A DNA stretch of 58,857 bases, from NCBI GenBank assembly GCA_964623775.1, contig CAZUVH010000002.1, positions 176,454 to 235,310 on the forward strand, given 5' to 3'. Positions 6,025 to 53,084 of this stretch are shown piece after piece. The position numbers and the translations under genes were made by a program. The notes beneath the pieces are model-generated. The model saw only the letters and a list, made by a program, of their open reading frames with translations. It was not told the DNA's origin and did no database searches. Source of the DNA: an uncultured Candidatus Saccharibacteria bacterium. GTDB lineage: Bacteria; Patescibacteriota; Minisyncoccia; Phycocordibacterales; UBA2100. Each line of letters starts with the position of its first letter. The stretch's first letter is position 1.

Positions 6025-7128
6025 TTATGCGCTTTCGCGCTCTTGGAAACGGAATGTGATGGTCGATAGGAAAAAGAGAACTGCACCCCAGATGATCATC
6101 GCAATGATATCGCTTTGTATATCGAAGAGTCCGGCACCCTTGGTCATGATCTCGCGCAATGCATTTGAGAAAAAAGTGAGCGGGAGAAATTGCGCGAATG
6201 CCTGGAGCCAGCCGGGCATACTAGAAATCGCGAAGAACGTCCCGCCCAGGAAAAGCATCGGGAACACGATGAGGTTGGCAATCGCCGGTACCGAGTCGAC
6301 GGTCTTTGCAAGACCCGAAATCGTGAAGCCAAGGCCGAGAAACATGAGCGCTCCGAGAATCACTATGAAGAGTAGGAGCAGGTATGAGCCGACGACATGC
6401 ACCTTAAACAAAAGCAGTGCGACGAGAATAAAGATGAGCGCCTGTACCACACTGATGAGAAGACGCGTAATCGCGTTTGCCGCGACGAATTGAATCGGCT
6501 TCATCGGAGTCGCGAGAATGCGCTTCAAGACACCTTTTTCCTTGTACTGCGTAAAGACAAACGCGACAGAGAAGACAGACATCTGCATGATCGAAAGTGC
6601 AATAAGGCCCGGCAGGAGGAATTCTATATAACGGAGATTATTGGCATTGACCTCCTTTTCTAGGAGATTGAATTCCGGCTCTACGTTGGCAGCTGCGATC
6701 GTTGCCCTGTCGATGAATTGATTGAGGATCGTCACCACTGTTTGAGCCTGGCCGGCCTGACCGGCGTTTTTATGCACGACGATTGATTGCCGCTCCCCTG
6801 GGAGCTGAGGCCCTTTTGGCACGAGGTAATCGGGCACTTCCAAGACCGCCGCGCGATTGCCCCCTGCAAGCTGCGCGAGCTCTTCATCATGTGTGCCCTC
6901 GTAGATCGTAAATGCGGGGAATTTCTTGATCTGCTCGATAAACTGCTGCGTTTCGGCAGATGGTTTGTGTGTGACGAGTCCGACATCGATCACCGGCGGC
7001 TTATCAAAACCGATGTATCCAAAGATAAGCATGATGAAAAGCGGCATGAAGAGCGTAAAGAAAAGCGCCTGCCGATTTCGAAGGAATGCAATGATCGAGT
7101 AGCGTGTAAGTTTCCAAATCATGCTCAT
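6025..7128 (-). CDS. ABC-2 type transporter permease
   Basis: 367 aa. One N-terminal TM, a large loop and five C-terminal TMs, as is typical of ABC-2 permeases. It lies directly downstream of the ATPase gene. Confidence 0.85.
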   Translation of the reverse strand: MSMIWKLTRYSIIAFLRNRQALFFTLFMPLFIMLIFGYIGFDKPPVIDVGLVTHKPSAETQQFIEQIKKFPAFTIYEGTHDEELAQLAGGNRAAVLEVPDYLVPKGPQLPGERQSIVVHKNAGQAGQAQTVVTILNQFIDRATIAAANVEPEFNLLEKEVNANNLRYIEFLLPGLIALSIMQMSVFSVAFVFTQYKEKGVLKRILATPMKPIQFVAANAITRLLISVVQALIFILVALLLFKVHVVGSYLLLLFIVILGALMFLGLGFTISGLAKTVDSVPAIANLIVFPMLFLGGTFFAISSMPGWLQAFAQFLPLTFFSNALREIMTKGAGLFDIQSDIIAMIIWGAVLFFLSTITFRFQERESA

Positions 7129-10083: not shown

Positions 10084-11865
10084 TTACTGACAACTGGTCG
10101 TGAACTGCTTCATGCGTGTCTTGTCGCCGTTGTAGCGATTGCGAAGCATGGTGAAGAGTCTGCTGATGGCACGCTGCACTTCCTTGGCCTCAAACACCTG
10201 CTCAGGATTAGTGCGATGCGTCTCAAAACCATTGTCTTCCACCGTGAGCGTACAGCGACTCACCCATCTATTATTGGCACACTGTTCCCACCGCGTACAG
10301 GTAAGCGTGAGTTTCTTGATACGGTACTCGAGCCAATAATCTCCAAGTCGCTGCTTATCCTGCATGATGGTGTAGAGCTCATGCATTGATTTAGTGAGGT
10401 TGTCGATGCCCTTGTCGTACCACTCGAGGAAATCCGGAAATTCCACCGCGTCAGCTGCTCCCGAGAGCGATTTATCGAGATACGCGTCCGCACCGCCCTT
10501 CATCTGCTTGCCCATCATAAAGACGTCTTTGATGGTCTGGAGATAATCGACAAATTTCATCGCCTCATTGCCCGCATCTGAGTAGATCCTGTCTTGTTTG
10601 AGCACCACACTCGGTAGATCGAGAATGGATACGTCGATCGACTCGTTGCGCTCATTACGCTTCTCGCCGTCGATGCAGACGCGTCGCGGCGGATCATCAT
10701 GCTTCTTTTCAGGAGGTTTTGTGCCTCCACCCGTCGTAGGAGGCGTCGTGCCTCCCTGGCCGGACTGGCCGCCATCACTTCCGCCACCATTCGTAGTCGG
10801 TCCGGAATTTCCTCCAGTTGGAGGCGGTGGAGTCGGGGGAGTTTCCGGCTTCGGTACCCCAATTCCACCGATGCAGACCTTGAGCGCTGCGGCTGCCGCT
10901 TCCCACGCAGCCTTCGCGGCTTCCATGGCGCTCTTTGCGCTTTGCCAGGTATTGTCACCTCCTGCGGCATCATAATCCTTCTTCGCTTTTTTTGCCGCAT
11001 CGGCCGCTTCATTGGCCGCACTCGCCGCTGCATCTGCCTTTGCCCCAAGCTCCTTATTTTGCCAACCCTCTTTGTGCACTTCGATATGCTCTCCTTCCCA
11101 ATCGGTCGAGCCGTGTGCGCTCCACCTGCCCCCCGCTGCTCTCGCCGCAGCATCGGCGGCATTGCGCGCATTTTGCGCATTGAGACGCGCGTCACTCGCC
11201 GACTTTTTTGCACTATCGATCGCGTCGAATTTTGCGCGCGCCGATTCGTACGCAGCTCGTGCGGCTGCTTCATCACGACGCTGCTTGGCACATGGATCAT
11301 CCTCTTCTTTGCGATCAACGAAAAGACCGTTGTTGTAGAACCACCAGCCGCCATACAAGATGAGTGCGAGTAGCGGGATCAGGAAGTAGTAGCAGTATTC
11401 ATAGAAAAAATCTTCCCAGTCTGCAAAAATTTCAGGATAATACACCGGCGCATTGGTGAGGCACGGAGCTCCATCGCCACTTTCCGATCCATCGTACGAG
11501 CACAATACCGAATCCTTCCCGTCGCTCACGTGCACCATGATCGATCCGTCGTGGCTCGTGCCATCCTCATGCGGACAACCAAAAGGCGGTATTTCGTTGG
11601 GATGCGCCCACGTCGCGCTCTCTACGACCGAATCGTGAAATAATCCGCAGGCGACGTCGCCATCCCATCTGTAGGTAAGTTGGTCGCCATCCGGATCTGT
11701 GGCCTCCACGGTGTATATGGTCACTGGTGCGACCAGATTCGCGTGGATCGGCTTTACGATCGGCGGACGATTACCATCCCCCTGCGCAAATGAGACAAAC
11801 GGAATAAAAGTAAGTAATAATAGGAGACCAAGGCCAAAAAAGGCTGAACCCCGAGCTAATTCCAT
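10084..11865 (-). CDS. bitopic membrane protein with an Ala-rich coiled-coil and a Pro/Gly-rich linker, hypothetical
   Basis: Start moved to the ATG at 11865 (MELARGSAFFGLGLLLLLTFIPFVSFAQG signal peptide). Exported domain with DPDGDQLTYRWDGD, one TM, an AAARAAYESARAKF-type low-complexity stretch and a PPTPPPPTGGNSG linker. Confidence 0.7.
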   Translation of the reverse strand: MELARGSAFFGLGLLLLLTFIPFVSFAQGDGNRPPIVKPIHANLVAPVTIYTVEATDPDGDQLTYRWDGDVACGLFHDSVVESATWAHPNEIPPFGCPHEDGTSHDGSIMVHVSDGKDSVLCSYDGSESGDGAPCLTNAPVYYPEIFADWEDFFYEYCYYFLIPLLALILYGGWWFYNNGLFVDRKEEDDPCAKQRRDEAAARAAYESARAKFDAIDSAKKSASDARLNAQNARNAADAAARAAGGRWSAHGSTDWEGEHIEVHKEGWQNKELGAKADAAASAANEAADAAKKAKKDYDAAGGDNTWQSAKSAMEAAKAAWEAAAAALKVCIGGIGVPKPETPPTPPPPTGGNSGPTTNGGGSDGGQSGQGGTTPPTTGGGTKPPEKKHDDPPRRVCIDGEKRNERNESIDVSILDLPSVVLKQDRIYSDAGNEAMKFVDYLQTIKDVFMMGKQMKGGADAYLDKSLSGAADAVEFPDFLEWYDKGIDNLTKSMHELYTIMQDKQRLGDYWLEYRIKKLTLTCTRWEQCANNRWVSRCTLTVEDNGFETHRTNPEQVFEAKEVQRAISRLFTMLRNRYNGDKTRMKQFTTSCQ

Positions 11866-11971
11866 ATGTGGACATAATACCGTCTTCCCCTCCAAAGCAA
11901 AGTAACCACAAACGCATCTTTCTTGCGTTTGTGATTCAGGCCGATGCATTGCGAAGGTTCAGTTTCTGCCG

Positions 11972-11983: not shown

Positions 11984-12310
11984 ATGAAAACAACCGTAGA
12001 CAAACTAAAAAACAACCGGACGCTTATTATGGCGCTCACGTATCTCGTCTTTTTCCTCCCCCGCTTCACGCAGTACAAGGCCGACCCCGAAATGCACTAC
12101 CACATGAAGCAGGCGCTCGGGATTTTCGTAGCATCCTTTGCGATACGCGGCATTCTCGGATCGCTGGCCCCTCTCGGCATGCCCTACGGATCGGTGATGC
12201 TCCTCCAGACTACTACCCTCGTCTACATCTTCCTCGGCATACACAATGTCGTCTACGGCAGAATGCGGCCTCTTCCTTACATCGGCAAATACGCCGAGCG
12301 AGTCTTTTAA
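11984..12310 (+). CDS. small membrane protein (DUF4870-like, tentative)
   Basis: 108 aa with three hydrophobic helices. The stop is 1 nt before the next ATG. Confidence 0.55.
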   Translation: MKTTVDKLKNNRTLIMALTYLVFFLPRFTQYKADPEMHYHMKQALGIFVASFAIRGILGSLAPLGMPYGSVMLLQTTTLVYIFLGIHNVVYGRMRPLPYIGKYAERVF

Positions 12311-12311
12311 C

Positions 12312-12707
12312 ATGAGCGTCCCAGTAAAGAAGACGGTATTAATCGTGGAAGACGAGCCAGAAATCCGAGGACTCTACGCACGTAAACTCATTGAATCAGG
12401 CTACGTAGTACTCAATGCGCAAGACGGCGCAGAAGGACTCGAGCTCGCACTTGAGAAGCGGCCCGATATTATCCTTCTTGATTACATGCTCCCAAAGATG
12501 AACGGCCTCGACATGCTCAAGAAACTGCGCGGGCACAATGAATGGGGTCAGCACGTGCCGACGATCATGCTCACCAACATCAGCCCCGACAATTCCATGT
12601 ACGAAAAGATTGTCGATACGACACCCACGTACTATCTCATCAAAAGCAACAGTAGCCCCGACGACATCGCCGAGAAGATCCGCGAACGCCTCGCAGAGCA
12701 AAACTAG
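12312..12707 (+). CDS. stand-alone response regulator receiver (CheY-like)
   Basis: Start moved to the ATG at 12312. Motifs VLIVEDEPEIR and DIILLDYMLPKMNG (phospho-acceptor Asp region). No output domain. Confidence 0.85.
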   Translation: MSVPVKKTVLIVEDEPEIRGLYARKLIESGYVVLNAQDGAEGLELALEKRPDIILLDYMLPKMNGLDMLKKLRGHNEWGQHVPTIMLTNISPDNSMYEKIVDTTPTYYLIKSNSSPDDIAEKIRERLAEQN

Positions 12708-12716
12708 GTTCCTTAT

Positions 12717-15700
12717 TTACTTAACAATTTCGTAACGAATTCGAGCGGTGTCAACTCGCTTCCCATCGCTTTCATTTCCCACTGTAAAGGGGATCGTGAT
12801 CTTCAATTCTTTCTCTGCGCGCGATCCCATCCCGTCGCTGACAAGTTTTTTGATTGCAGCTCCCGAATATCCGGAGGAAAACGCGTTTGTTATCTTATTT
12901 CTTAAATCTCTTGATACGCCAATGTTGCAAGAGACCACGTAGTCGTCAATACTGACTTTTTTCAAGCTAAGTTCAAGCGAATCGAAAGTAGCGATCGTAC
13001 GGAACCCCTCAAATCGCGAACCAAGACCAAAACGTAGCAAATCGGTCGCCGGAATCTCATGTGGCACACCCCGCATCTCTTCTGTCCGGAAAGAAAAATT
13101 CTTGTACGGCCCATCTCCCGTCACGGTAAAACGCTCTTTTGAATCGAACTCTTCGCGAAGGTCATCAAAAAACGCCCCTACTTCCGAATCTTGATTTGCA
13201 AAGTACCTGCTCAGCTCGGCATCATAATCAGCATACCGAAATACTGAAGCGGTATTTTCAGGAATATTTTCAAGTGCAGGTGCCCGCCTTTTTTCCTGCT
13301 CAGTGAGTGCAAGTCCTGCTGCCGGACCCACCTTATAGATCTCTGTGCCGATATATCGTGACGCGACAGGAAGCCCGTCGTTGATTTCGGGGACCGAGAA
13401 CGCTTCAGTGCGAGCAGATTGCCTTGAACGTGCGGTGTCGATATAAAGAACATCGTCGAGATTTTTTCGAAACCCCTCGATATATGCGAGGAATTCACTT
13501 TGAGTGTTGAAGGTTTTGTTTTCTATATAACCAAAGCTATCGATCGTGACAGACTCAATCAAGCCTTCCTTCTCGCGAAGCTCGACTCGATCTCCTTCCT
13601 GATTCACAATTGCAACTGGATCACGTCGAATCACTCGCAATAATCGGTCGGTGTTAGACAAAAAATCTGTGAGGTCTTCACGAAACGAAAGTCTCTCTGG
13701 ATCAGTGAACTCGACCAACTTGTCGGTCTTGTCTTCAAACCCGTGCGCATAGACGTAGTGGTCACCGTAAAAACGCTCTACTCCGCCATCCTTTCCTGTG
13801 GCAACCACCATTATATTATTCCCGTCTCTCTCGAGTCTTTCGGCCCGGAGCCCGGGATGCGGATAGATGCGATGGTAGTATGATTCAATTTTTTCGCGAG
13901 GAAACTCAAGAGCGAGCTGGTGATAGCGGACGCGACACCCTTCGACGAAAGCTTCTTTCGTGGGGAATGATTGTCCGATCCAATCAATTCGTTCCACGAA
14001 ATCAAGCTGCGTCGTGCTCATGCCGACCTGGCTTTCGTACCCGAGTATGACACCGACAATCACCTTCATCCCATCGCCCTCGCCTGATACAACAAGGTTT
14101 TTTATACCTTTCATTGGGAAGGGGTTCTCCGGGTCACTGAGGCGCCTTGCGGCTTGCGCAAAAGACATAACTTTTGCGTCATTCCCGTTTTCGTATTCTT
14201 CCTTTTCTGCCACAAGAATATTTCGCGTCCCTGCATCCGATTGATTGAGTGTTATTTTTTCCTCGCCGATCCCGGTCGTAAATATCACCCGATCGATTTC
14301 CACTTCGACTACCCTGCCGCCTCTTTTATCGACGAACCCGACCACGTAATTTCCGAGAGCTCTATCCAAACCCCCGTAGGGCTTCCGTATATGACGGACA
14401 TCAGCACCGGTAAGCGTTTCGCCGGAGAGAAATTGATTAATTCGCGCGTGTTCGCCGTACGACGACTGATGCGGGTACGCCTCCATGCTCGTGTCTGCGG
14501 GGCTCGTAGCTGCATAGTCACTGAACGTGCTCAGTGTCTGTGCGGTGCCTGGAAGTGCCGGCTCATCGCGTAGCATTTTGCGCACTCGGTTGTTTTTACG
14601 AAAAAGAGGTGATTGCATTTGCGCGAATTGACCGCCGATTCGCATATCTCGTTCGAACGTGAGGGCCGGATTGCTTGGGACAATCATCTGTCTGTTGACA
14701 TTCCATATCGCTGCGTGCACGCCGCTCCCAATTACACCTTGTGCAACGTACCGGCGCCTTTGCCCATCCAAAAGCTCCAATATATTACGCGAGCGATTTT
14801 CTACCGTCTCGTCGATCGCCATATCAAGAAGCGGCCTCGTCCGCTTGCCCATCATGAGCCCGACAAGCATCGGCGTGAGTGCTCGGTGCTTTTCGTCTCC
14901 ACGCTGCAGTGCAAGAATCTCTTTTCGCCGCGAAAGCATGGTGTCATATTCATGACGGAGCTCCGGATCCTGGAGCATACGCGAGAGAGCCTGAAACGGG
15001 ACGCTCCGACGCAAATGCTGTACGCGATCTCGAAGCGCTTCACGGTGTTTCAGATCTCTCTCAGCGTTAAGATCTTTCTCATTCTCATCAGAAAAAGAAT
15101 CAAAATCATCATCGGGAAAAGGGTCGTCGTCAAAAGAAGATTCGAAGGAGTCACGAAAAGGATCATCGAGCCTGCTTTGTATTCGTCTTTCTGCTTCAAG
15201 CTGTCCGTAACGTTGCTGTATTCGCTCATCTTCGAGCCGTCGGAAGCGCTCTCGTTCTCGTTCTGCCTGCCTCTCTTTCAGCTTTCTCAGGGCTTCTTCT
15301 TGAAGTCTTTTTAAAATCTCAGGGTCCACGTCTCCCGGTCGATTTCTTAAAGACACATCACGGGTACCGTCCGGCAACGGCCGTGCCGGTTTGAGTTCAG
15401 TCGTAGGAACAGGAATTTCTGTCTTTTCTTCTTCAATGATTGTCGATACGAGGACACCCATGCCCGGCTGATCAGGCCGAGTATTCTCTCGCACTTGCAC
15501 AGAATATCCCTTGAAAGGGTCGAGCTTGAAATCCGGAGGAAGATCTTTTTTTCTGATAACGATTTTTTTTCCTTCGAGCGTTTCACCACGATATTCAGTG
15601 ATTTCCTGTTTCTTATTAAAAGCGGCCTTTAGCCGTAAATTATTTATGACTTCCAATGTTGACTCGTTTTGAGAGATGGATTCTTTCTTTTCGTTTTTTT

Positions 15701-15725
15701 TTCGATTTGGAAATCCTTCGATCAT
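12717..15725 (-). CDS. large (about 1000 aa) hypothetical protein with a charged N-terminal region and two dinucleotide-binding-like motifs
   Basis: The ORF runs to a TTG at 15836; the first ATG is at 15725, so the start is uncertain. ERERERFRRLEDER and DDDPFPDDDFDSF low-complexity stretches, then VIGSGVHAAIW (GxGxxA), VVSGEGDGMKV and YKVGPAAG. Confidence 0.65.
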   Translation of the reverse strand: MIEGFPNRKKNEKKESISQNESTLEVINNLRLKAAFNKKQEITEYRGETLEGKKIVIRKKDLPPDFKLDPFKGYSVQVRENTRPDQPGMGVLVSTIIEEEKTEIPVPTTELKPARPLPDGTRDVSLRNRPGDVDPEILKRLQEEALRKLKERQAERERERFRRLEDERIQQRYGQLEAERRIQSRLDDPFRDSFESSFDDDPFPDDDFDSFSDENEKDLNAERDLKHREALRDRVQHLRRSVPFQALSRMLQDPELRHEYDTMLSRRKEILALQRGDEKHRALTPMLVGLMMGKRTRPLLDMAIDETVENRSRNILELLDGQRRRYVAQGVIGSGVHAAIWNVNRQMIVPSNPALTFERDMRIGGQFAQMQSPLFRKNNRVRKMLRDEPALPGTAQTLSTFSDYAATSPADTSMEAYPHQSSYGEHARINQFLSGETLTGADVRHIRKPYGGLDRALGNYVVGFVDKRGGRVVEVEIDRVIFTTGIGEEKITLNQSDAGTRNILVAEKEEYENGNDAKVMSFAQAARRLSDPENPFPMKGIKNLVVSGEGDGMKVIVGVILGYESQVGMSTTQLDFVERIDWIGQSFPTKEAFVEGCRVRYHQLALEFPREKIESYYHRIYPHPGLRAERLERDGNNIMVVATGKDGGVERFYGDHYVYAHGFEDKTDKLVEFTDPERLSFREDLTDFLSNTDRLLRVIRRDPVAIVNQEGDRVELREKEGLIESVTIDSFGYIENKTFNTQSEFLAYIEGFRKNLDDVLYIDTARSRQSARTEAFSVPEINDGLPVASRYIGTEIYKVGPAAGLALTEQEKRRAPALENIPENTASVFRYADYDAELSRYFANQDSEVGAFFDDLREEFDSKERFTVTGDGPYKNFSFRTEEMRGVPHEIPATDLLRFGLGSRFEGFRTIATFDSLELSLKKVSIDDYVVSCNIGVSRDLRNKITNAFSSGYSGAAIKKLVSDGMGSRAEKELKITIPFTVGNESDGKRVDTARIRYEIVK

Positions 15726-15829
15726 ACGAATTCTCGTACAGTTATTGTAGCAAGTAATAACGAACGAGAAACGCATCCAGGTGGAAAACGGACCCGAAAT
15801 TAGGGCGCTAAATAAGGAGTTTTTAGGGC

Positions 15830-15857
15830 TTGACAAATAATTTATATGTGATAGGAT
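15830..15857 (+). promoter_or_regulatory. near-consensus sigma70-type promoter (TTGACA, 16 nt, TGaTAGGAT)
   Basis: TTGACA at 15830-15835, a 16-nt spacer, and the extended -10 TGATAGGAT at 15849-15857. This is the only perfect -35 I found paired with an extended -10. Confidence 0.55.
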
Positions 15858-15863
15858 TCCAGT

Positions 15864-16154
15864 AGATATAGGAGGTTCACCGAGGGTTGAGCTGTAATAG
15901 CGTCAGCTAACGCCAAAACAGTTTAATCTGAGGTAAAGTGCCCACTCTCACGGGTTCGGAAGGGAGAGAAGTTGGGGAGATCGGATCTGCAAGGACGAGT
16001 CCGGCCGGACGATTCCTTGGATACCTACTCTTTAACTTGGTGGTTTCCTAGTAGGAAACTGGGCATAACGGAAGGGGTCGCTCCCTTGCCTGCTCGTAGC
16101 TGAGCTGAACCGGAAGTAACCCCCCATCTCAATGAGGTGGGGGGGTTTTATTTT
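15864..16154 (+). ncRNA. candidate structured small RNA of about 290 nt, family unknown
   Basis: It lies between the promoter above and a strong terminator. There is no ATG until 16132. Serial hairpins at 15941-15977, 15990-16019, 16043-16059 and 16072-16087. It is antisense in orientation to both flanking genes. Confidence 0.45.
16118..16154 (+). terminator. intrinsic terminator on the plus strand
   Basis: AACCCCCCA..TGGGGGGGTT stem followed by TTTTATTTT. It overlaps the last codons of the convergent minus-strand gene. The minus-strand reading has no T-tract. Confidence 0.75.
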
Positions 16155-17421
16155 GCATAACGCTTATCTCCGCAACGGCGTGCAGTGCGCTTTGAAACGC
16201 CCCCTCTACCGTAGCCATCGAGCCGCCTTTTGTAAGCGCCTCACCGCAAAAAAAGATGCGGTCATTGACCGGTTTCAAAAGCTCATCGACCGCGGCATCG
16301 CTTTCCGGCGTCATATAGCTGTACGACCCGCGTGTATAGGGATCCTTTTGCCAGTTAGCCACTTTGTAATGCACGAGTTCTTCGCGTAGCGTCTCGATAT
16401 TGATATTAAAAATATTTGACAGCGACTTGAGTGCTACGTCGCAGATTTCTTCGTCGGTATCATCTCGAAGTTCCAGCGCCCTCGGCCTGGACGTCCACCC
16501 TGTCAACACCACGCGAGGTTCTGGGTACTGTGTCCACCACGTTGGCACCTTTTCCTTTGAAATAAGGAAAAAGAGTCGTTCGAAAATATTTTCCCGCACT
16601 CCCGCCCACCATTTTGTCTTAAATCGAAGAAGTATCTTTATGATCGCGCCAAAACCAATCTTTTCGATAGCAGCAATTTTCTCTGGGAGAGCAGGTGAGA
16701 ATTGGATCGTCCGAATGAGAGGGAGTGGCACTGTCACGAGCACTTTGCGAGCAAGATACACCGAGTCGTCATTACATCGTACAGAGAGGACCTCATCTGT
16801 ATGATCGATGCCGCGTACATAAGCGCTGAGGATAATGCGGGCGCCGTTTTTCTCACACTCGCGCCTCAAATACCGCACGAGCGCCCCATACCCCTCTTTG
16901 AGATTTCGCTGCAGTGCATCTTCTTGATGCAGCATTTCATTGCGAAAGCCGAAAGTACTCATGTGCTTAGGGTCGGCTGTGTCATACCCTTCCACCCAAC
17001 GACACACATAATCACGCAACTGGGCATGCTCCTCACCCGGAAAATGGGTATCAAGAAATTCCGATACCGGCATATCGTGATCGACTTTTTTCAGAGCCTC
17101 TATGAGCTGCGGGTCGTTGGGCGTATTGTCTTCGATCTTTTTCGGCTCGCCATCACGCACACTCCACCACTCCGTGGGGTGAGTGAGCGTGAGTCCCGCC
17201 TCTGCAATAATTCCGCACGTAATTGGCGCTTCGCCATGCACGAATTCGGCACCTCCCTGAGCTTCATAGCCGAAATCTTCTGCGGAAAGCGGAAATATAC
17301 GACCACCGACACGATCACGCGCTTCAAGTATCAAGACTTTCCTACCAACCTTTGAAAGCTCGCGTGCCGCGAGTAATCCTGACGCCCCCGCGCCGACAAT
17401 AATGACGTCTGCACGCTCCAT
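16129..17421 (-). CDS. flavin-containing amine oxidase family protein
   Basis: 430 aa. VIIVGAGASGLLAARELSKVGRKVLILEARDRVGGRI is the classic amine oxidase FAD fold. Confidence 0.85.
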   Translation of the reverse strand: MERADVIIVGAGASGLLAARELSKVGRKVLILEARDRVGGRIFPLSAEDFGYEAQGGAEFVHGEAPITCGIIAEAGLTLTHPTEWWSVRDGEPKKIEDNTPNDPQLIEALKKVDHDMPVSEFLDTHFPGEEHAQLRDYVCRWVEGYDTADPKHMSTFGFRNEMLHQEDALQRNLKEGYGALVRYLRRECEKNGARIILSAYVRGIDHTDEVLSVRCNDDSVYLARKVLVTVPLPLIRTIQFSPALPEKIAAIEKIGFGAIIKILLRFKTKWWAGVRENIFERLFFLISKEKVPTWWTQYPEPRVVLTGWTSRPRALELRDDTDEEICDVALKSLSNIFNINIETLREELVHYKVANWQKDPYTRGSYSYMTPESDAAVDELLKPVNDRIFFCGEALTKGGSMATVEGAFQSALHAVAEISVMQNKTPPPH

Positions 17422-18603: not shown

Positions 18604-18636
18604 AAACAACCCGCTCCAGCGGGTTGTTTCTTTTCT
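18604..18636 (+). terminator. intrinsic terminator (copy 1 of a duplicated terminator module)
   Basis: AAACAACCCGC-TCCA-GCGGGTTGTTT followed by CTTTTCT. Confidence 0.8.
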
Positions 18637-18966: not shown

Positions 18967-18996
18967 AACAACCCGCTCCGGCGGGTTGTTCCTTTT
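18967..18996 (+). terminator. intrinsic terminator (copy 2, 23/24 identical to 18605-18628)
   Basis: AACAACCCGC-TCCG-GCGGGTTGTT followed by CCTTTT. Confidence 0.8.
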
Positions 18997-28037: not shown

Positions 28038-31000
28038 ATGTTCAAAAAGGGTGCTCTGTTTTTTACTGTCGCAACGGCTCTCCTTTTTACAGGTACTTCA
28101 GCAGTGTTCGGCGCTACAATGACAGGGCCATCGCTGTCTACGACAGGGTCAACAGCACCACTTAATTATAGTCAACTCACCTTAACATCTGCGCCCACCG
28201 CCCCTGCCCCAAAAGCGCCCGCCTATGACCAGGCTGCGGCAGACAAAATGTGTCCGCCAGTATCCGCCACTGCCTGTTATTTTTTGAGTAAGACAGCAAA
28301 CGTATGTGAACCGAGGGACGAGAAATGTTATGTACCGACGGCGAAGACAACACTAAAAGCGACCTCACTGTTTTCTCAGACTGCTGGAGTACTTGCTGCC
28401 ACAAGTTGCGTGGCTCCAAATAAAATGAAAAGGAACTTATCTCTAATCGCCTGTTTTGCGAAGGACACGACTGGCAAACAAGTGACTCAAGGACATTGTG
28501 TATATGAAAATAGATGTACAACTGAAAAGGTTTTGGCAAAGGTCATGGAAAACGGACAGATGGTTGAAAAATGGGTAGAGCCCGAGAAGGTACAAAATGT
28601 GAGCGTCGGCGGCGCCGTTGGCTCTTCAGGAGGTGGTTCCGTCTCGGGTGAAACACCAAAGGCTCCAGCTCCGCCGCCGCCTATCACTACTAATCCCGCC
28701 GGTGCTCCAGGTGACTACAAGCCGGCACCGGGCACGGGGACACAGACGGGTTCTACGCAGGCGCCTCCACCCTCGTCCCAAACTCCTCCCGACACCATTT
28801 CGAATACGGCGGGTAATGTACCCCAGGGAAGTATATCGGGATCTGCCCCAAAAGCGCCCGCTCCGGCTACTTCCGGTAGCATCACAGGTGCGCCCGCTGC
28901 GGCCCCCGCTCCATCCGCTCAATTCTCCGGATCGGCAGGTCTCACAAAGACGGGCAGCCTCCCGTCTACCGGTGCCCCCGCCGCGCCTACTACCGGCTCC
29001 AATCCCGCGTCGGCCGCAACCAATCCATCGCAGTACACGCAGCAGCCTTCCACCTTTGCGAGCGCAAATACAAAAACGGGCTCACCAGGCAACACTACCG
29101 GCTTTGATGGTTCATACTCATCGCCTTCTGCTGCAAGCCGAGCGGTCTCAGCATTCACAAGTTTTATTGCTTCGGTCGGCAGTACCATTGCTTCAGCAGG
29201 TAGTGGCGCCGTCGAGTACGTGAGGAACACCGTCTCTCCACCTCCATCTCCGAAGCCTGTCGTAAAACCGCTCACACTCAATGAAGCATTCCCGCGGCCG
29301 ATGCAGACAGGGTCAACGCAAACATCTACTACGAATACCGCCGCGACGGCTGGAGCGACGACCGCATCTCCCACTCAAATAAGTTCAGCGGGGACAATCT
29401 CGCGACAAATAATTCTTTCGACTTCTCAGCTCTCCCCCGCTTCTGGTGCACAGATGCCGACTAAAAACACTCTGGGTACGCCGTACACAGATCCTGATTT
29501 GATCGGGACCAATCATCAGGTCCGCAGCATGGACCTCCCGATTCCGCCGCAGACGTCGCAAGATGCGTCGGCAATTGACGGCGCTGGATCATATCAAGCG
29601 CAGGCGCGATCAGTACAGGCGAGCTCGGGAGGCAAACCCCTCCCCTCCAGTTCGCTTTCTGCCGCTCAAAATGTGAGGAATAGTCTGCCGACCGTTCCCG
29701 TCTCTGCAATAGATTATTCGGCGGATTACTCATCTCTCTGGTCGGAAAAGCCGGATGCTGCCGCAAAGAGGGCTGAGGAAGCGATGTCCGCGCTCTCACA
29801 TTGGGCGCCACCTTCAGCGATCACTGCAGGGACGCCGGTCGCTGCCGGCATATCGACATCGAATCTCGGCGTATTCATCAATACACTCGTCGGCAAATGG
29901 ACGCGTGGCATCCCCACCTCCTGGGAGCAGGCACAAATGGATCTCGCCATAGCAGAAGCGCAGAGCAACATGACCGGACTTCTCGCGCAGATCGATGCAT
30001 GGAAACTCGCGCAAGAGGTAAAGGAGTGCGATGCCGTGTGCGAATCTTCTCTGCAAGCCCTGGAATTCGGCCGGCCGATCCAGGAGGCGACCATTAAGAC
30101 CCTCCTGCAAAAGCGTGCGGATGCCAAATTTGCGATGGAAACGGCAAGGCCGTTCTTTAAGGGCAGCGCGCAGGTAGGAAATGCACTTGTGTCTTGCGAA
30201 GAAAGCGGCCTGTGCTCCGTGCAAGATTTCCCCAAGGCGGGGGCGGATCCCAAACCATCGGCAGTCATGTCGTACGAATATGCGACACGATTTATCGATG
30301 AATCTGCAGTGGTCCAGACGCCTGGTCCAACTGAGCAAAATACGAAACAACAGATCGAGGAGATTTCTATACGACTCAATCAACTGCAAAGTGTCCTGCA
30401 AGAAATGATCGCGCCACGAGCACAGGGGGCTTTGGCCGAAAATAGTTTGCCGCGACTCAATGCGGTACTGAGCAATGTCATTGCGAAGGAGGGCCTCGAT
30501 CTCTATACCGACAGCGATTACGACGGAATCTCAGATTACGACGAGATACACATATACGAAACCAATCCGCGCAGTGCACACACGGGCGGGTCCAATCTGA
30601 CCGACGGCGAACGCGTGCTTTTTGGCCTCGATGTACACACAAGTACCACCGAGCGCATCGCGGTAGAATCGCCACGCTTAGGCGGTGCGACGAGTACAAA
30701 AATCTTCGAAGTCTATTCAATTGATATCGCTACCTCCACGATCGACGCGGAGAGCAAACCAATCGTTCAAGAGACGACGATCACGGGCCGCGCGCTTCCC
30801 AATAGCTTCGTGACGCTCTATGTCTTCTCCACGCCAGTCGTCGTGACGGTCAGAGCGGATTCGCAGGGTCTCTGGAGTTACACCTTTGATATGGAGCTCG
30901 AGGACGGCGATCACGAATTGTACGTGGCTTCGATCGACTCAAGCGGTAAAATCATTGCGAAGAGTCCCGCTGTACCATTTTTCAAGCGCGCGACTGCCGC

Positions 31001-31169
31001 CGTATTCACGCCACTTCTCATGAACGAGACGCCGGTCACAGATCCACTCGACACGCTGCGCTATACACTCATCTCGCTCGCGATCGTCAGTATCATCCTC
31101 TTCGGGATTATCGGGATCGTAATCTTGGGATTCCGCAAGACGCGTCTCACAGAAAGCAAAGTGGCCTAA
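28038..31169 (+). CDS. giant Ser/Thr/Pro/Ala-rich surface protein with a C-terminal membrane anchor
   Basis: 1043 aa. Signal peptide. Hundreds of residues of S/T/P/A low complexity with the PKAPAP motif three times. Thrombospondin-type-3-like DSDYDGISDYDE. Ig-like segment ITGRALPNSFVTLYVFS..SQGLWSYTF. C-terminal TM followed by RKTR. Confidence 0.75.
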   Translation: MFKKGALFFTVATALLFTGTSAVFGATMTGPSLSTTGSTAPLNYSQLTLTSAPTAPAPKAPAYDQAAADKMCPPVSATACYFLSKTANVCEPRDEKCYVPTAKTTLKATSLFSQTAGVLAATSCVAPNKMKRNLSLIACFAKDTTGKQVTQGHCVYENRCTTEKVLAKVMENGQMVEKWVEPEKVQNVSVGGAVGSSGGGSVSGETPKAPAPPPPITTNPAGAPGDYKPAPGTGTQTGSTQAPPPSSQTPPDTISNTAGNVPQGSISGSAPKAPAPATSGSITGAPAAAPAPSAQFSGSAGLTKTGSLPSTGAPAAPTTGSNPASAATNPSQYTQQPSTFASANTKTGSPGNTTGFDGSYSSPSAASRAVSAFTSFIASVGSTIASAGSGAVEYVRNTVSPPPSPKPVVKPLTLNEAFPRPMQTGSTQTSTTNTAATAGATTASPTQISSAGTISRQIILSTSQLSPASGAQMPTKNTLGTPYTDPDLIGTNHQVRSMDLPIPPQTSQDASAIDGAGSYQAQARSVQASSGGKPLPSSSLSAAQNVRNSLPTVPVSAIDYSADYSSLWSEKPDAAAKRAEEAMSALSHWAPPSAITAGTPVAAGISTSNLGVFINTLVGKWTRGIPTSWEQAQMDLAIAEAQSNMTGLLAQIDAWKLAQEVKECDAVCESSLQALEFGRPIQEATIKTLLQKRADAKFAMETARPFFKGSAQVGNALVSCEESGLCSVQDFPKAGADPKPSAVMSYEYATRFIDESAVVQTPGPTEQNTKQQIEEISIRLNQLQSVLQEMIAPRAQGALAENSLPRLNAVLSNVIAKEGLDLYTDSDYDGISDYDEIHIYETNPRSAHTGGSNLTDGERVLFGLDVHTSTTERIAVESPRLGGATSTKIFEVYSIDIATSTIDAESKPIVQETTITGRALPNSFVTLYVFSTPVVVTVRADSQGLWSYTFDMELEDGDHELYVASIDSSGKIIAKSPAVPFFKRATAAVFTPLLMNETPVTDPLDTLRYTLISLAIVSIILFGIIGIVILGFRKTRLTESKVA

Positions 31170-48866: not shown

Positions 48867-48940
48867 TGGCTGGGGGACAGGGACTCGAACCCCGATAAAC
48901 GCCTCCAAAGGGCGCTGTCCTACCATTAGACGATCCCCCA
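48867..48940 (-). tRNA. tRNA-Gln (anticodon UUG), CCA encoded
   Basis: 74 nt folds as a cloverleaf. Acceptor UGGGGGA/UCCCCCA with U1-A72 and G73. D stem GUCU/GGAC. Anticodon loop CUUUGGA. T arm CGGGG-UUCGAGU-CCCUG. Confidence 0.9.
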
Positions 48941-51812: not shown

Positions 51813-53084
51813 TTAGGCGTCTTCATACTGACGGCTGTAGCCATGCAGAATCTGCAAAAGCTCTGGACGCTTCTCGAAGAGCGCCTCCACCTCCTTTTCC
51901 GACATCTTCGCGGCCATCGCCACATTGGCAATCGTCCGCTCATTCTTCGGAAGGAGCTGAGTCTTGTACACAGCGACGAAACACCTATTGTACGGTCTTG
52001 AACTCGGTGCCTTGCTCGCAGTTTTCGTAGACCGTTTCTCAAGTACGTCATGGACCTTGGGCCCTGGCACGGATTTTTTGCGTACCGAGAGATGCCCTTC
52101 ACCGCGCAGATCGAGTGCACGGATATCGTCGCCTTTCAGCCGCTTTTCTACAAATTCGAGCATCCGGGGCTCCGATACGCTAAATGATCGAGCTGCGTTT
52201 TTCGCCAGTTGTATTCGGGTCGGCTTCGCGGTCGTAAAATTCTTGCGCGCCAAATACAGTAGTGCGACTTTTTTCTTGTCATACGTACACCGATGCTTCA
52301 AATCAAGGGCTACTTCATCCTCGAGCTTGAGCGCAGTGCACAAGAAGTTGGTGTGGAACAGTCCGGGCGTCATATACGATGAGCCGCCGGTATCCTTGCG
52401 TAAACGCACCGCAACTTTTGCAAGTTCGAGAAACGTCGGCTTACCCTTAAACTTTTTTCGAGCCTTCTTCGCTGCTTCCAAGAGCTCCGCATACGGAATC
52501 TGGTGCGGGAGCACATCAAGACTTTTTCTGTGTTTTTCACGTAAACGGAAAAAAAAGGTTTTCAGAGCCGCCACCTTGTACTTTGATGACGCTGCTGCAC
52601 GTCTACAGAGATCCAGCACTGTCGGCTTTTCACAGCCGAAAGTGGCCCGAGCCTTGAGGAGACATTGGTACTTCGATTTGTACGGTGCCATATGCGCTTT
52701 GAGACCCAATTCTTTTCGAGTCTCATCACTCATTCCCGTGAGATAGTCGCGCATTCGTCGTACCGGAACGCCAGCATACTGTGGCGCGAGCCTACAGATC
52801 TCATGATGCGAATAGCGAGTACCTTTCGAAAGGAAATCCTTGAGCGGCTTGAAAAGATCCGCGTCGCTCCGAGCCCCGTACCTTGGAGGCTGTTGCAGCT
52901 GCAGTGCAGCGCGTTTAGCTACCGTCAGCTTACTCATCAATTGAATCAGCTGTTTTTTTGTCGCCTCGCACTTCTTCGAAGCGGCTTCTACGAGCTCTCC
53001 GCGCTCCGGCTTATTTTCGCCGAACTCCTTTCGAGTCTCGAACAGGACGCCAATTAACCTCTTCCTTCTTTCACCCGGACGCAT
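51813..53084 (-). CDS. hypothetical protein built of about six copies of a ~60-aa helical (HTH-like) module
   Basis: 423 aa. GAGGAG SD. Modules include YAELLEAAKKARKKFKGKPTFLELAKVAV.., YKSKYQCLLKARATFGCEKPTVLDLCRRAA.. and LLYLARKNFTTAKPTRIQLAKNAA.. Confidence 0.6.
   Translation of the reverse strand: MRPGERRKRLIGVLFETRKEFGENKPERGELVEAASKKCEATKKQLIQLMSKLTVAKRAALQLQQPPRYGARSDADLFKPLKDFLSKGTRYSHHEICRLAPQYAGVPVRRMRDYLTGMSDETRKELGLKAHMAPYKSKYQCLLKARATFGCEKPTVLDLCRRAAASSKYKVAALKTFFFRLREKHRKSLDVLPHQIPYAELLEAAKKARKKFKGKPTFLELAKVAVRLRKDTGGSSYMTPGLFHTNFLCTALKLEDEVALDLKHRCTYDKKKVALLYLARKNFTTAKPTRIQLAKNAARSFSVSEPRMLEFVEKRLKGDDIRALDLRGEGHLSVRKKSVPGPKVHDVLEKRSTKTASKAPSSRPYNRCFVAVYKTQLLPKNERTIANVAMAAKMSEKEVEALFEKRPELLQILHGYSRQYEDA

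Follow-up and report, generated by a model that had tools for sequence, protein, structure and literature searches.

A candidate structured noncoding RNA gene divergent from the gene of a 1002-residue protein in an uncultured Saccharibacteria bacterium

Several structured noncoding RNAs (ncRNAs) of bacteria are encoded next to a gene for a protein. The large structured OLE RNA of Bacillota, whose partners are OapA, OapB and OapC, has a gene that adjoins a partner gene and was discovered by comparative genomics, and the bacterial Y RNAs, including YrlA, are structured ncRNAs of 100–200 nucleotides (nt) encoded beside their binding protein Rsr, an orthologue of Ro60. The raiA motif, GOLLD, ROOL and HEARO/omega RNA were recognised from conservation before function, the omega RNA gene adjoining its protein gene, and in the pairs OxyS-oxyR, GcvB-gcvA and SgrS-sgrR the genes of RNA and regulator are placed on back-to-back divergent promoters. 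Here we describe a 58,857-bp stretch of contig CAZUVH010000002.1 from an uncultured Candidatus Saccharibacteria bacterium (hereafter the window), in which a promoter-to-terminator unit at 15830–16154 of the plus strand lies divergent to the gene of a 1002-residue protein. We consider it quite probable that the unit is a genuine ncRNA gene, belongs to a new family and is linked to this protein, and on balance we favour the narrower reading of it as a stand-alone structured-ncRNA gene that is the dedicated partner of the protein.

The locus is like that of OLE in having a structured ncRNA gene beside a candidate dedicated protein partner, but no Rfam OLE model matches, the window RNA is about 290 nt long against about 600 nt for OLE, and the partner is a flavoprotein-like protein of some 1000 residues with an OB-like domain, encoded divergently and not in an operon. 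It differs from the Y RNAs in that there is no Rfam Y-RNA match and no Ro60-type (TROVE) domain was detected by Pfam in the 1002-residue protein. With the OxyS-oxyR type of locus it has the divergent layout of RNA and protein genes in common, but the 1002-residue protein has no detectable DNA-binding domain and the window RNA is much longer and more structured. None of the Rfam models of raiA, GOLLD, ROOL and HEARO matches the window RNA, which also lies outside a transposon or phage context: BLAST searches of phages and plasmids returned nothing relevant, and no flanking repeats that would mark the locus as a mobile element were found. No description of this RNA or of its pairing with the protein was found in the literature. 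To our knowledge, dedicated protein partners are rare among bacterial ncRNAs of this size, and we know of no such RNA that is paired with a flavoenzyme-like protein. The novelty would thus lie in the family and the pairing and not in the principle, because protein-associated ncRNAs of unknown function have precedents.

Anatomy of the RNA unit

The promoter consists of a −35 hexamer TTGACA at 15830–15835 and, after a 16-nt spacer, an extended −10 element, TGATAGGAT, at 15849–15857, both on the plus strand. An earlier note on this DNA had singled it out as the best promoter of the window, and it is indeed the strongest consensus promoter there: the pattern TTGACA-N13-15-TGnTAnnnT has this single occurrence on both strands, and the plain form TTGACA-N16-18-TAnnnT is found at only one other position (37322, minus strand). 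The predicted plus-strand transcript of about 290 nt would extend from 15862, a start placed from the −10 element, to 16154, an end placed from the T tract, and given the consensus promoter the RNA may be abundant. The stretch of about 290 nt without ATG that the earlier note described downstream of the promoter was recovered, since no ATG occurs in 15858–16131, and the GC skew is positive within the RNA interval only. The unit closes with an intrinsic terminator on the plus strand (16120–16154), in which an 11-pair stem with 8 G-C pairs at 16120–16144 is followed by GTTTTATTTT. A terminator scan calls this hairpin on the plus strand, as had been proposed, and not on the minus strand; the convergent amine-oxidase gene shares its final codons with the terminator. 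From these signals we infer that the unit is transcribed. The intergenic gap in which it lies measures 403 nt (15726–16128), not the 292 nt given earlier, because the left gene starts at the ATG at 15725 and not at the mechanically called TTG at 15836. This start is assigned because of the call of the 1002-residue gene in the identical contig L006 and the alignment of homologues.

The whole window was scanned with the 4227 covariance models of Rfam 15, with the gathering threshold of each family as the criterion, and no match was obtained besides a tRNA at 48870–48940. With the expectation value (E) relaxed to 10, the interval 15700–16250 gave terminator-like partial matches only, of at most 15.6 bits, and no aptamer family matched there. 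ARAGORN found no tRNA or tmRNA gene in 15600–16300, and in the related loci described below no Rfam family was matched either. The claim that the unit belongs to no known RNA family is therefore upheld by the Rfam scan and ARAGORN, and these searches, together with the checks of open reading frames (ORFs) given below, support the reading of the interval as a promoter-to-terminator unit for a structured RNA. A leader, riboswitch, T-box or attenuator, already called unlikely in the case of riboswitch and T-box, was rejected since no gene follows on the same strand: in the window the terminator extends into the 3′ end of the amine-oxidase gene, which is convergent, and in two of the related loci, L004 and L030, the next gene beyond the RNA is also convergent.

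The full 293-nt unit has a predicted folding energy of −119.8 kcal/mol (z = −4.4). Part of this z-score comes from the terminator, since it drops to −2.5 when the terminator is removed; the truncated plus strand folds with an energy of −96.6 versus −78.7 for its reverse complement and has 11 G-U pairs versus 2. All elements named here are on the plus strand. The minimum-free-energy fold contains a 5′ stem-loop at 15884–15929, a 12-pair G-U-rich stem with the cap GCGU-CAGCUA-ACGC, which lies outside the covariance model introduced below. The block GCCCACUCUCACGGGUUCGGAAGGGAGAGA at 15940–15969 is common to the window and L004, with 21 of 30 bases identical by eye. A long hairpin arm of 9 + 5 + 6 + 4 pairs at 15971–16036 contains the palindromic hairpin 15990–16019, and a three-way-junction domain occupies 16037–16113. 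In this domain the closing helix UUGGU/ACCGG is formed around hairpins 16044–16058, 16072–16087 and 16092–16105, hairpin 16072–16087 stacks on GGGC/GCCU, and the conserved single-stranded bases are GG, CGG, UAG and UGAA. The hairpins proposed earlier at 15990–16019, 16043–16059 and 16072–16087 are all present in the fold.

Recurrence of the unit beside the protein gene

The description of the unit as an orphan did not survive comparison with other loci: the gene of the 1002-residue protein (12717–15725, minus strand) has the unit as its conserved divergent partner. When the related loci are oriented with the protein gene on the plus strand, the minus strand immediately upstream has in each case a promoter, then untranslated sequence and finally a terminator. 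Measured from the start of the −35 to the end of the −10 element, the promoter is at 1060 to 1032 in L004, with a terminator stem at 774–747 and a unit of about 289 nt; at 583 to 555 in L002 (stem 376–354, about 205 nt); at 2656 to 2629 in L030/L031 (stem 2319–2289, 343 nt, with no ORF of 40 or more codons and z = −11); at 2852 to 2825 in L032 (stem 2665–2640, about 187 nt); at 2361 to 2333 in L033 (stem 2172–2151, about 184 nt); at 2353 to 2325 in L034 (stem 2162–2131, about 197 nt); and at 1388 to 1360 in L131 (stem 1058–1032, about 330 nt). All units feature a TTGACA promoter with a TG-extended −10 element directed away from the protein gene, followed by 185–343 nt and a strong terminator. 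The same TTGACA(A) hexamer is present in 7/7 related loci; TGnTAnnnT forms the −10 element in the window, L002, L004 and L030, and TG precedes the −10 element in the other four related promoters too. A search of both strands of the window together with eight loci (112.8 kb) found exactly four occurrences of the strict promoter pattern, each at the position of the RNA unit. All eight RNAs fold better than shuffled sequences, with z-scores of −3.4 to −11.3 for full units and −1.7 to −6.3 once the terminators are removed.

The presence of the unit follows the presence of an N-terminal domain in the protein. A domain of about 75 residues is common to the proteins of the window, L004, L002 and L030 and is absent from those of L027, L029 and L003. 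Among the best family representatives 17 match its profile, and these include the L032, L033, L034 and L131 proteins; no match is given by the proteins of L132, L027, L029 and L003. Among loci that could be inspected, every domain-bearing one has the RNA unit (8/8, window included) and none of the domain-less ones does (0/4: L003, L027/L028, L029 and L132/L133), a split with a one-sided exact probability of 1/495, not corrected for shared ancestry. In L003 a divergent promoter drives two coding genes; L027/L028 and L029 are of high G+C content and have coding DNA upstream of the protein gene; and in L132/L133 the upstream gap of the protein gene is only 57 nt. The RNA and protein genes thus stay neighbours in these 8/8 versus 0/4 loci while other genes change, those beyond the RNA differing in every locus (amine oxidase, DAGK, membrane protein, DUF1653, response regulator, Peptidase_M24).

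The nearest syntenic relative, L005, has the order META, amine oxidase (71% identical), replaced segment, response regulator and 93-residue gene, and between the same flanking genes a gene of 161 residues stands in place of both the RNA and the 1002-residue gene. Because L005 lacks both and the outer neighbours change, the RNA and the protein gene behave as one cassette that is gained or lost as a unit, and because they travel together the two probably work together. Genes of response-regulator receivers adjoin the cassette or the empty site in the window (12246–12707, plus strand), L033 (1090–1943) and L005 (2737–3156), and L033 also has a PAS histidine kinase.

Similarity between the RNAs was not detected when the RNA region was compared with the related loci by blastn and nhmmer. 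The RNAs of the window and L004 nevertheless contain seven colinear words (GGAGAGA, AAGGACG, UGGUGG, CUGGGC, CGGAAGG, UGCCUGC and GCUGAACCGGA), and the best colinear chain of words covers 51–57 bases versus 27–33 (standard deviation 7) in shuffled sequences, a length reached by 1–2 of 1000 shuffles. A covariance model with the window RNA as its sole source (15961–16117, 49 pairs, comprising the long arm and the three-way junction) was used to search 61.6 kb on both strands and ranked L004:795–964 (minus strand) first, with 19.1 bits and E = 0.002, the next best match having E = 0.39. The 49 modelled pairs are distributed in L004 as 21 unchanged, 3 with a one-sided change, 11 compensatory, 3 broken and 11 gapped; 7 of the compensatory pairs are in the long arm and 4 in the junction domain, and slid controls gave at most 3.

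A different sequence type is found in five of the other six RNAs (L002, L030, L032, L033 and L034), which have TTAGCCA in common; shuffles predict 0.00 such 7-mers in 5/8 RNAs. In four of these five the UUAGCCA motif is placed in a hairpin (G)GUU-AGCCA-AACC or a close variant (GGGU-UAGCCAC-ACCC in L002), and L032 retains just the UUAGCCAAA loop. The outer stems differ in sequence (GGGUG/CACCC, AGCA/UGCU, GGGCG/CGCCC and GCGACG/CGUUCGC, by eye). The RNA of L131 is of neither type. Thus at least two RNA sequence types appear to occupy one conserved genomic position, and the positional equivalence of all eight RNAs rests on synteny and promoter similarity, because the models do not cross-match. 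Outside these loci a scan of GTDB genomes with an RNA pattern gave 17 matches, all attributable to chance, inside coding DNA and without the other motifs. In viral contigs the long pattern had no match and a 14-mer had 96, a number that chance could account for, and none of these lies near a protein homologue. The joint model of window and L004 has a weak full-length match in L027 at 6419–6539 (plus strand; 11.2 bits, E = 0.12) that is probably noise; it lies about 1 kb downstream of the homologue that has no upstream RNA.

The UUAGCCA-type motif was also compared with iron boxes. The 13-mer GGTTAGCCAAACC, present on the minus strand in L030 (2520–2538), L033 (2266–2284) and L034 (2268–2286), has the same sequence as the core of the DtxR site known experimentally from irp1 of Corynebacterium diphtheriae, TTAGGTTAGCCAAACCTTT (PMC524172). 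The likeness of the related loci to DtxR/IdeR boxes comprises this core and a protein core that weakly resembles siderophore N-hydroxylases. The differences are that the arms of the 19-bp box are unmatched (13–14 of 19 positions), that the motif is situated about 32–123 nt downstream of the RNA start at a distance that varies (estimated from coordinates), and that L032 retains just TTAGCCAAA. The window RNA has no DtxR box, its best score of 12 of 19 being equalled by 63 of 300 shuffles. With flanks and position that do not fit and a window without the box, the reading of the motif as a DtxR operator was not adopted.

The divergent protein and flanking genes

The 1002-residue protein has no match in Pfam, NCBIfam, PADLOC or the sequences of the PDB. 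A profile search of 1.84 billion representative proteins found 622 relatives at E ≤ 0.001, 200 of them at E ≤ 1e-30, none annotated, and the N- and C-terminal extensions vary among the members of this family. The proteins of the window itself recur only in three Logan assemblies, where the DNA is identical; a scan of GTDB genomes with a pattern from the 1002-residue protein found no relative, and repeating the word-index protein search with an alignment of 19 sequences yielded the same five proteins as before.

The core of the protein (residues ~320–665, encoded at 13731–14768, minus strand) contains two GxGxxG-like motifs, and one family member gave a weak hint of Pfam NAD_binding_9. The best Foldseek matches of the core are the N-hydroxylating flavin monooxygenases SidA, PvdA and DfoA, with E of ~1e-5 and a template-modelling (TM) score of ~0.2, in a search that rests on a poor full-length AlphaFold model (predicted local distance difference test, pLDDT, of 52). 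The predicted core thus weakly resembles this class of enzyme. The N-terminal domain, encoded at 15426–15653 of the minus strand (residues ~25–100), is predicted as a six-stranded β domain with a pLDDT of 67 overall and 75–87 in its core. Its best Foldseek matches are the NusA S1 domain, Rpb7/A43, IF1, the MiaB TRAM domain and bS1 (E 0.01–0.1), which weakly suggest an S1/OB-like fold of the RNA-binding type. No DNA-binding domain was detected in the protein by Pfam, NCBIfam and fold searches. Right before the ATG of the protein gene, L004 (1030–1101), L002 (700–745) and L030 (2690–2739) have a −10-like TATA(T/C) and no Shine-Dalgarno sequence, and the protein mRNAs of several loci look leaderless or near-leaderless.

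On its other side the RNA unit is flanked by the gene of a convergent flavin amine oxidase (16129–17421, minus strand), whose best named homologues, at 52–57% identity, are from Candidatus Adlerbacteria, Kaiserbacteria and Paceibacterota. The window's amine oxidase ends 9–10 residues beyond its 71%-identical homologue P0007, and the extra codons overlap the RNA terminator. These codons (…MQNKTPPPH, 16129–16160, minus strand) are the terminator read on the other strand, which points to a remodelling of the gene's 3′ end by the cassette boundary. Elsewhere in the window, large ORFs without an NCBIfam or Pfam match are found at 28038–31169 (plus strand, 1043 residues), 51813–53084 (minus strand, 423 residues) and 10084–11949 (minus strand, 621 residues), and two near-identical terminator-like hairpins, AAACAACCCGCTCCAGCGGGTTGTTT at 18604–18629 and AACAACCCGCTCCGGCGGGTTGTT at 18967–18990, are situated on the plus strand about 360 nt apart.

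Proposed function and alternative explanations

In the mechanism that we propose, a structured RNA of about 290 nt would be transcribed from the strong promoter and ended by the intrinsic terminator, and would form a two-gene cassette with the divergent 1002-residue gene. The RNA would be bound through the OB-like N-terminal domain and, once bound, may serve the flavoprotein-like enzyme as scaffold, regulator or substrate. Direct binding by that domain, which we infer tentatively, is possible but falls short of being probable, and any biochemical role would be a further step. The most specific version, a new ribonucleoprotein of poorly sampled bacteria in which the dedicated RNA is held by the S1/OB domain and either serves a flavin-dependent monooxygenase-like enzyme as scaffold or specificity element or is chemically modified by it, is rather unlikely as it stands.

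Several points weigh against the reading of the unit as a structured RNA dedicated to the protein. The comparative data are shallow, with two clearly alignable sequences: demonstrable homology is limited to the RNAs of the window and L004, the joint model of these two matches none of the other six RNAs, and the model of the TTAGCCA motif (type B) matches neither of the two. The compensatory pairs were counted in an alignment of just two sequences, which was itself fitted to a structure derived from one of them. Without the terminator the z-score of the window RNA (−2.5) is close to that of its reverse complement (−2.7), so that z-scores do not separate the strands. The split of 8 loci with and 0 without may partly reflect one clade, and the OB-fold assignment is weak, being built on Foldseek matches of E 0.01–0.1 and an alignment of four sequences.

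Four other explanations were weighed. In the first, which we think unlikely, the transcript is a trans-acting small RNA that has a bidirectional control region in common with the protein gene, is co-regulated with it, and targets other mRNAs without binding the protein, an arrangement akin to OxyS-oxyR or GcvB-gcvA. The back-to-back divergent layout, with 73–194 nt from RNA start to protein start in the window, L004, L002 and L030, would suit such an RNA, as would a strong promoter and Rho-independent terminator like those of many small RNAs and the fast sequence divergence between lineages. However, the neighbour has no detectable DNA-binding domain, the RNAs are long (185–343 nt) and heavily paired and show no complementarity to the start region of the neighbour beyond that of shuffles, and the link to the N-terminal RNA-binding-like domain is left unexplained. 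A cis-antisense regulator of the neighbour was rejected separately, the duplex energies being within the range of shuffles at 4/4 loci tested.

In the second explanation the transcript has no function of its own, and the strong divergent promoter and the terminator are kept in order to control the protein gene, for instance by competition between promoters, by supercoiling or by insulating it from the convergent neighbour. The promoter is indeed the best conserved part of the unit, with 22 of 28 bases identical (own count) between the window and L030, whose proteins are just 36% identical, and the RNA bodies are mostly not alignable. The compensatory changes between the window and L004, the motif found in 5/8 RNAs with a surrounding stem that appears by eye to covary, and the consistently negative folding z-scores argue on the other side, and insulation needs no stretch of 185–343 nt. 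We regard a functionless transcript as distinctly improbable.

A third possibility, a short protein gene or an RNA with a dual function, is very improbable. The candidate in the window is a 37-codon ORF with a GTG start at 15938–16051 and GAGG 4 nt upstream, which the earlier note had offered as a route to refutation. In three of the four RNAs examined (window, L002 and L030) UGAGGU is followed 3–4 nt on by a start codon; the instances are cugagguaaaGUG (window, 15928–15940), cugaggugaAUG (L002) and augagguaguAUG (L030). Between the window and L004, codons 1–12 differ 6/1/5 times at codon positions 1, 2 and 3, a point in favour of coding. Over the remaining ORF, however, the differences fall 13/11/16, with no codon-position bias overall, the frame is lost between the blocks that the two RNAs have in common (spacing differences of 8, 8, 7, 1, 1 and 20 nt), and no Shine-Dalgarno sequence precedes the GTG of L004. 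The peptides are unrelated (37, 27/29, 64 and 17 residues in the four RNAs, which are those of the window, L004, L002 and L030), the ORF of L002 extends through the terminator, and a conserved reading frame of the kind expected for a short protein gene or type I toxin was sought among the four RNAs and not found. The 37-codon ORF is thus not conserved and the RNA reading stands. The RNAs of the window and L030 have a further Shine-Dalgarno-like sequence, AGGAGG or AGAGG, at their 5′ ends.

The last explanation, a divergent housekeeping RNA (6S, SRP, RNase P or tmRNA) that the Rfam models miss in an unusual lineage, would suit an apparently undersampled organism, one of whose window genes has its best named homologues in the candidate phyla radiation (Patescibacteria), but it is extremely improbable, since no Rfam model of these RNAs matches at the unit even at E ≤ 10, ARAGORN found no tmRNA, and such an RNA would not be expected to accompany one accessory protein gene through eight neighbourhoods or to be absent from the syntenic L005.

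The dedicated structured RNA therefore remains the reading that we favour, and the RNA is, on the sequences compared here, a candidate for a new class of structured ncRNAs that are associated with a protein. Its co-occurrence with an RNA-binding-like domain leads to a testable hypothesis, namely that the RNA is bound by the protein and that binding has an effect on the activity of the enzyme. If the finding is real, the unit would represent a new bacterial structured-RNA class tied to a new and sizeable protein family.

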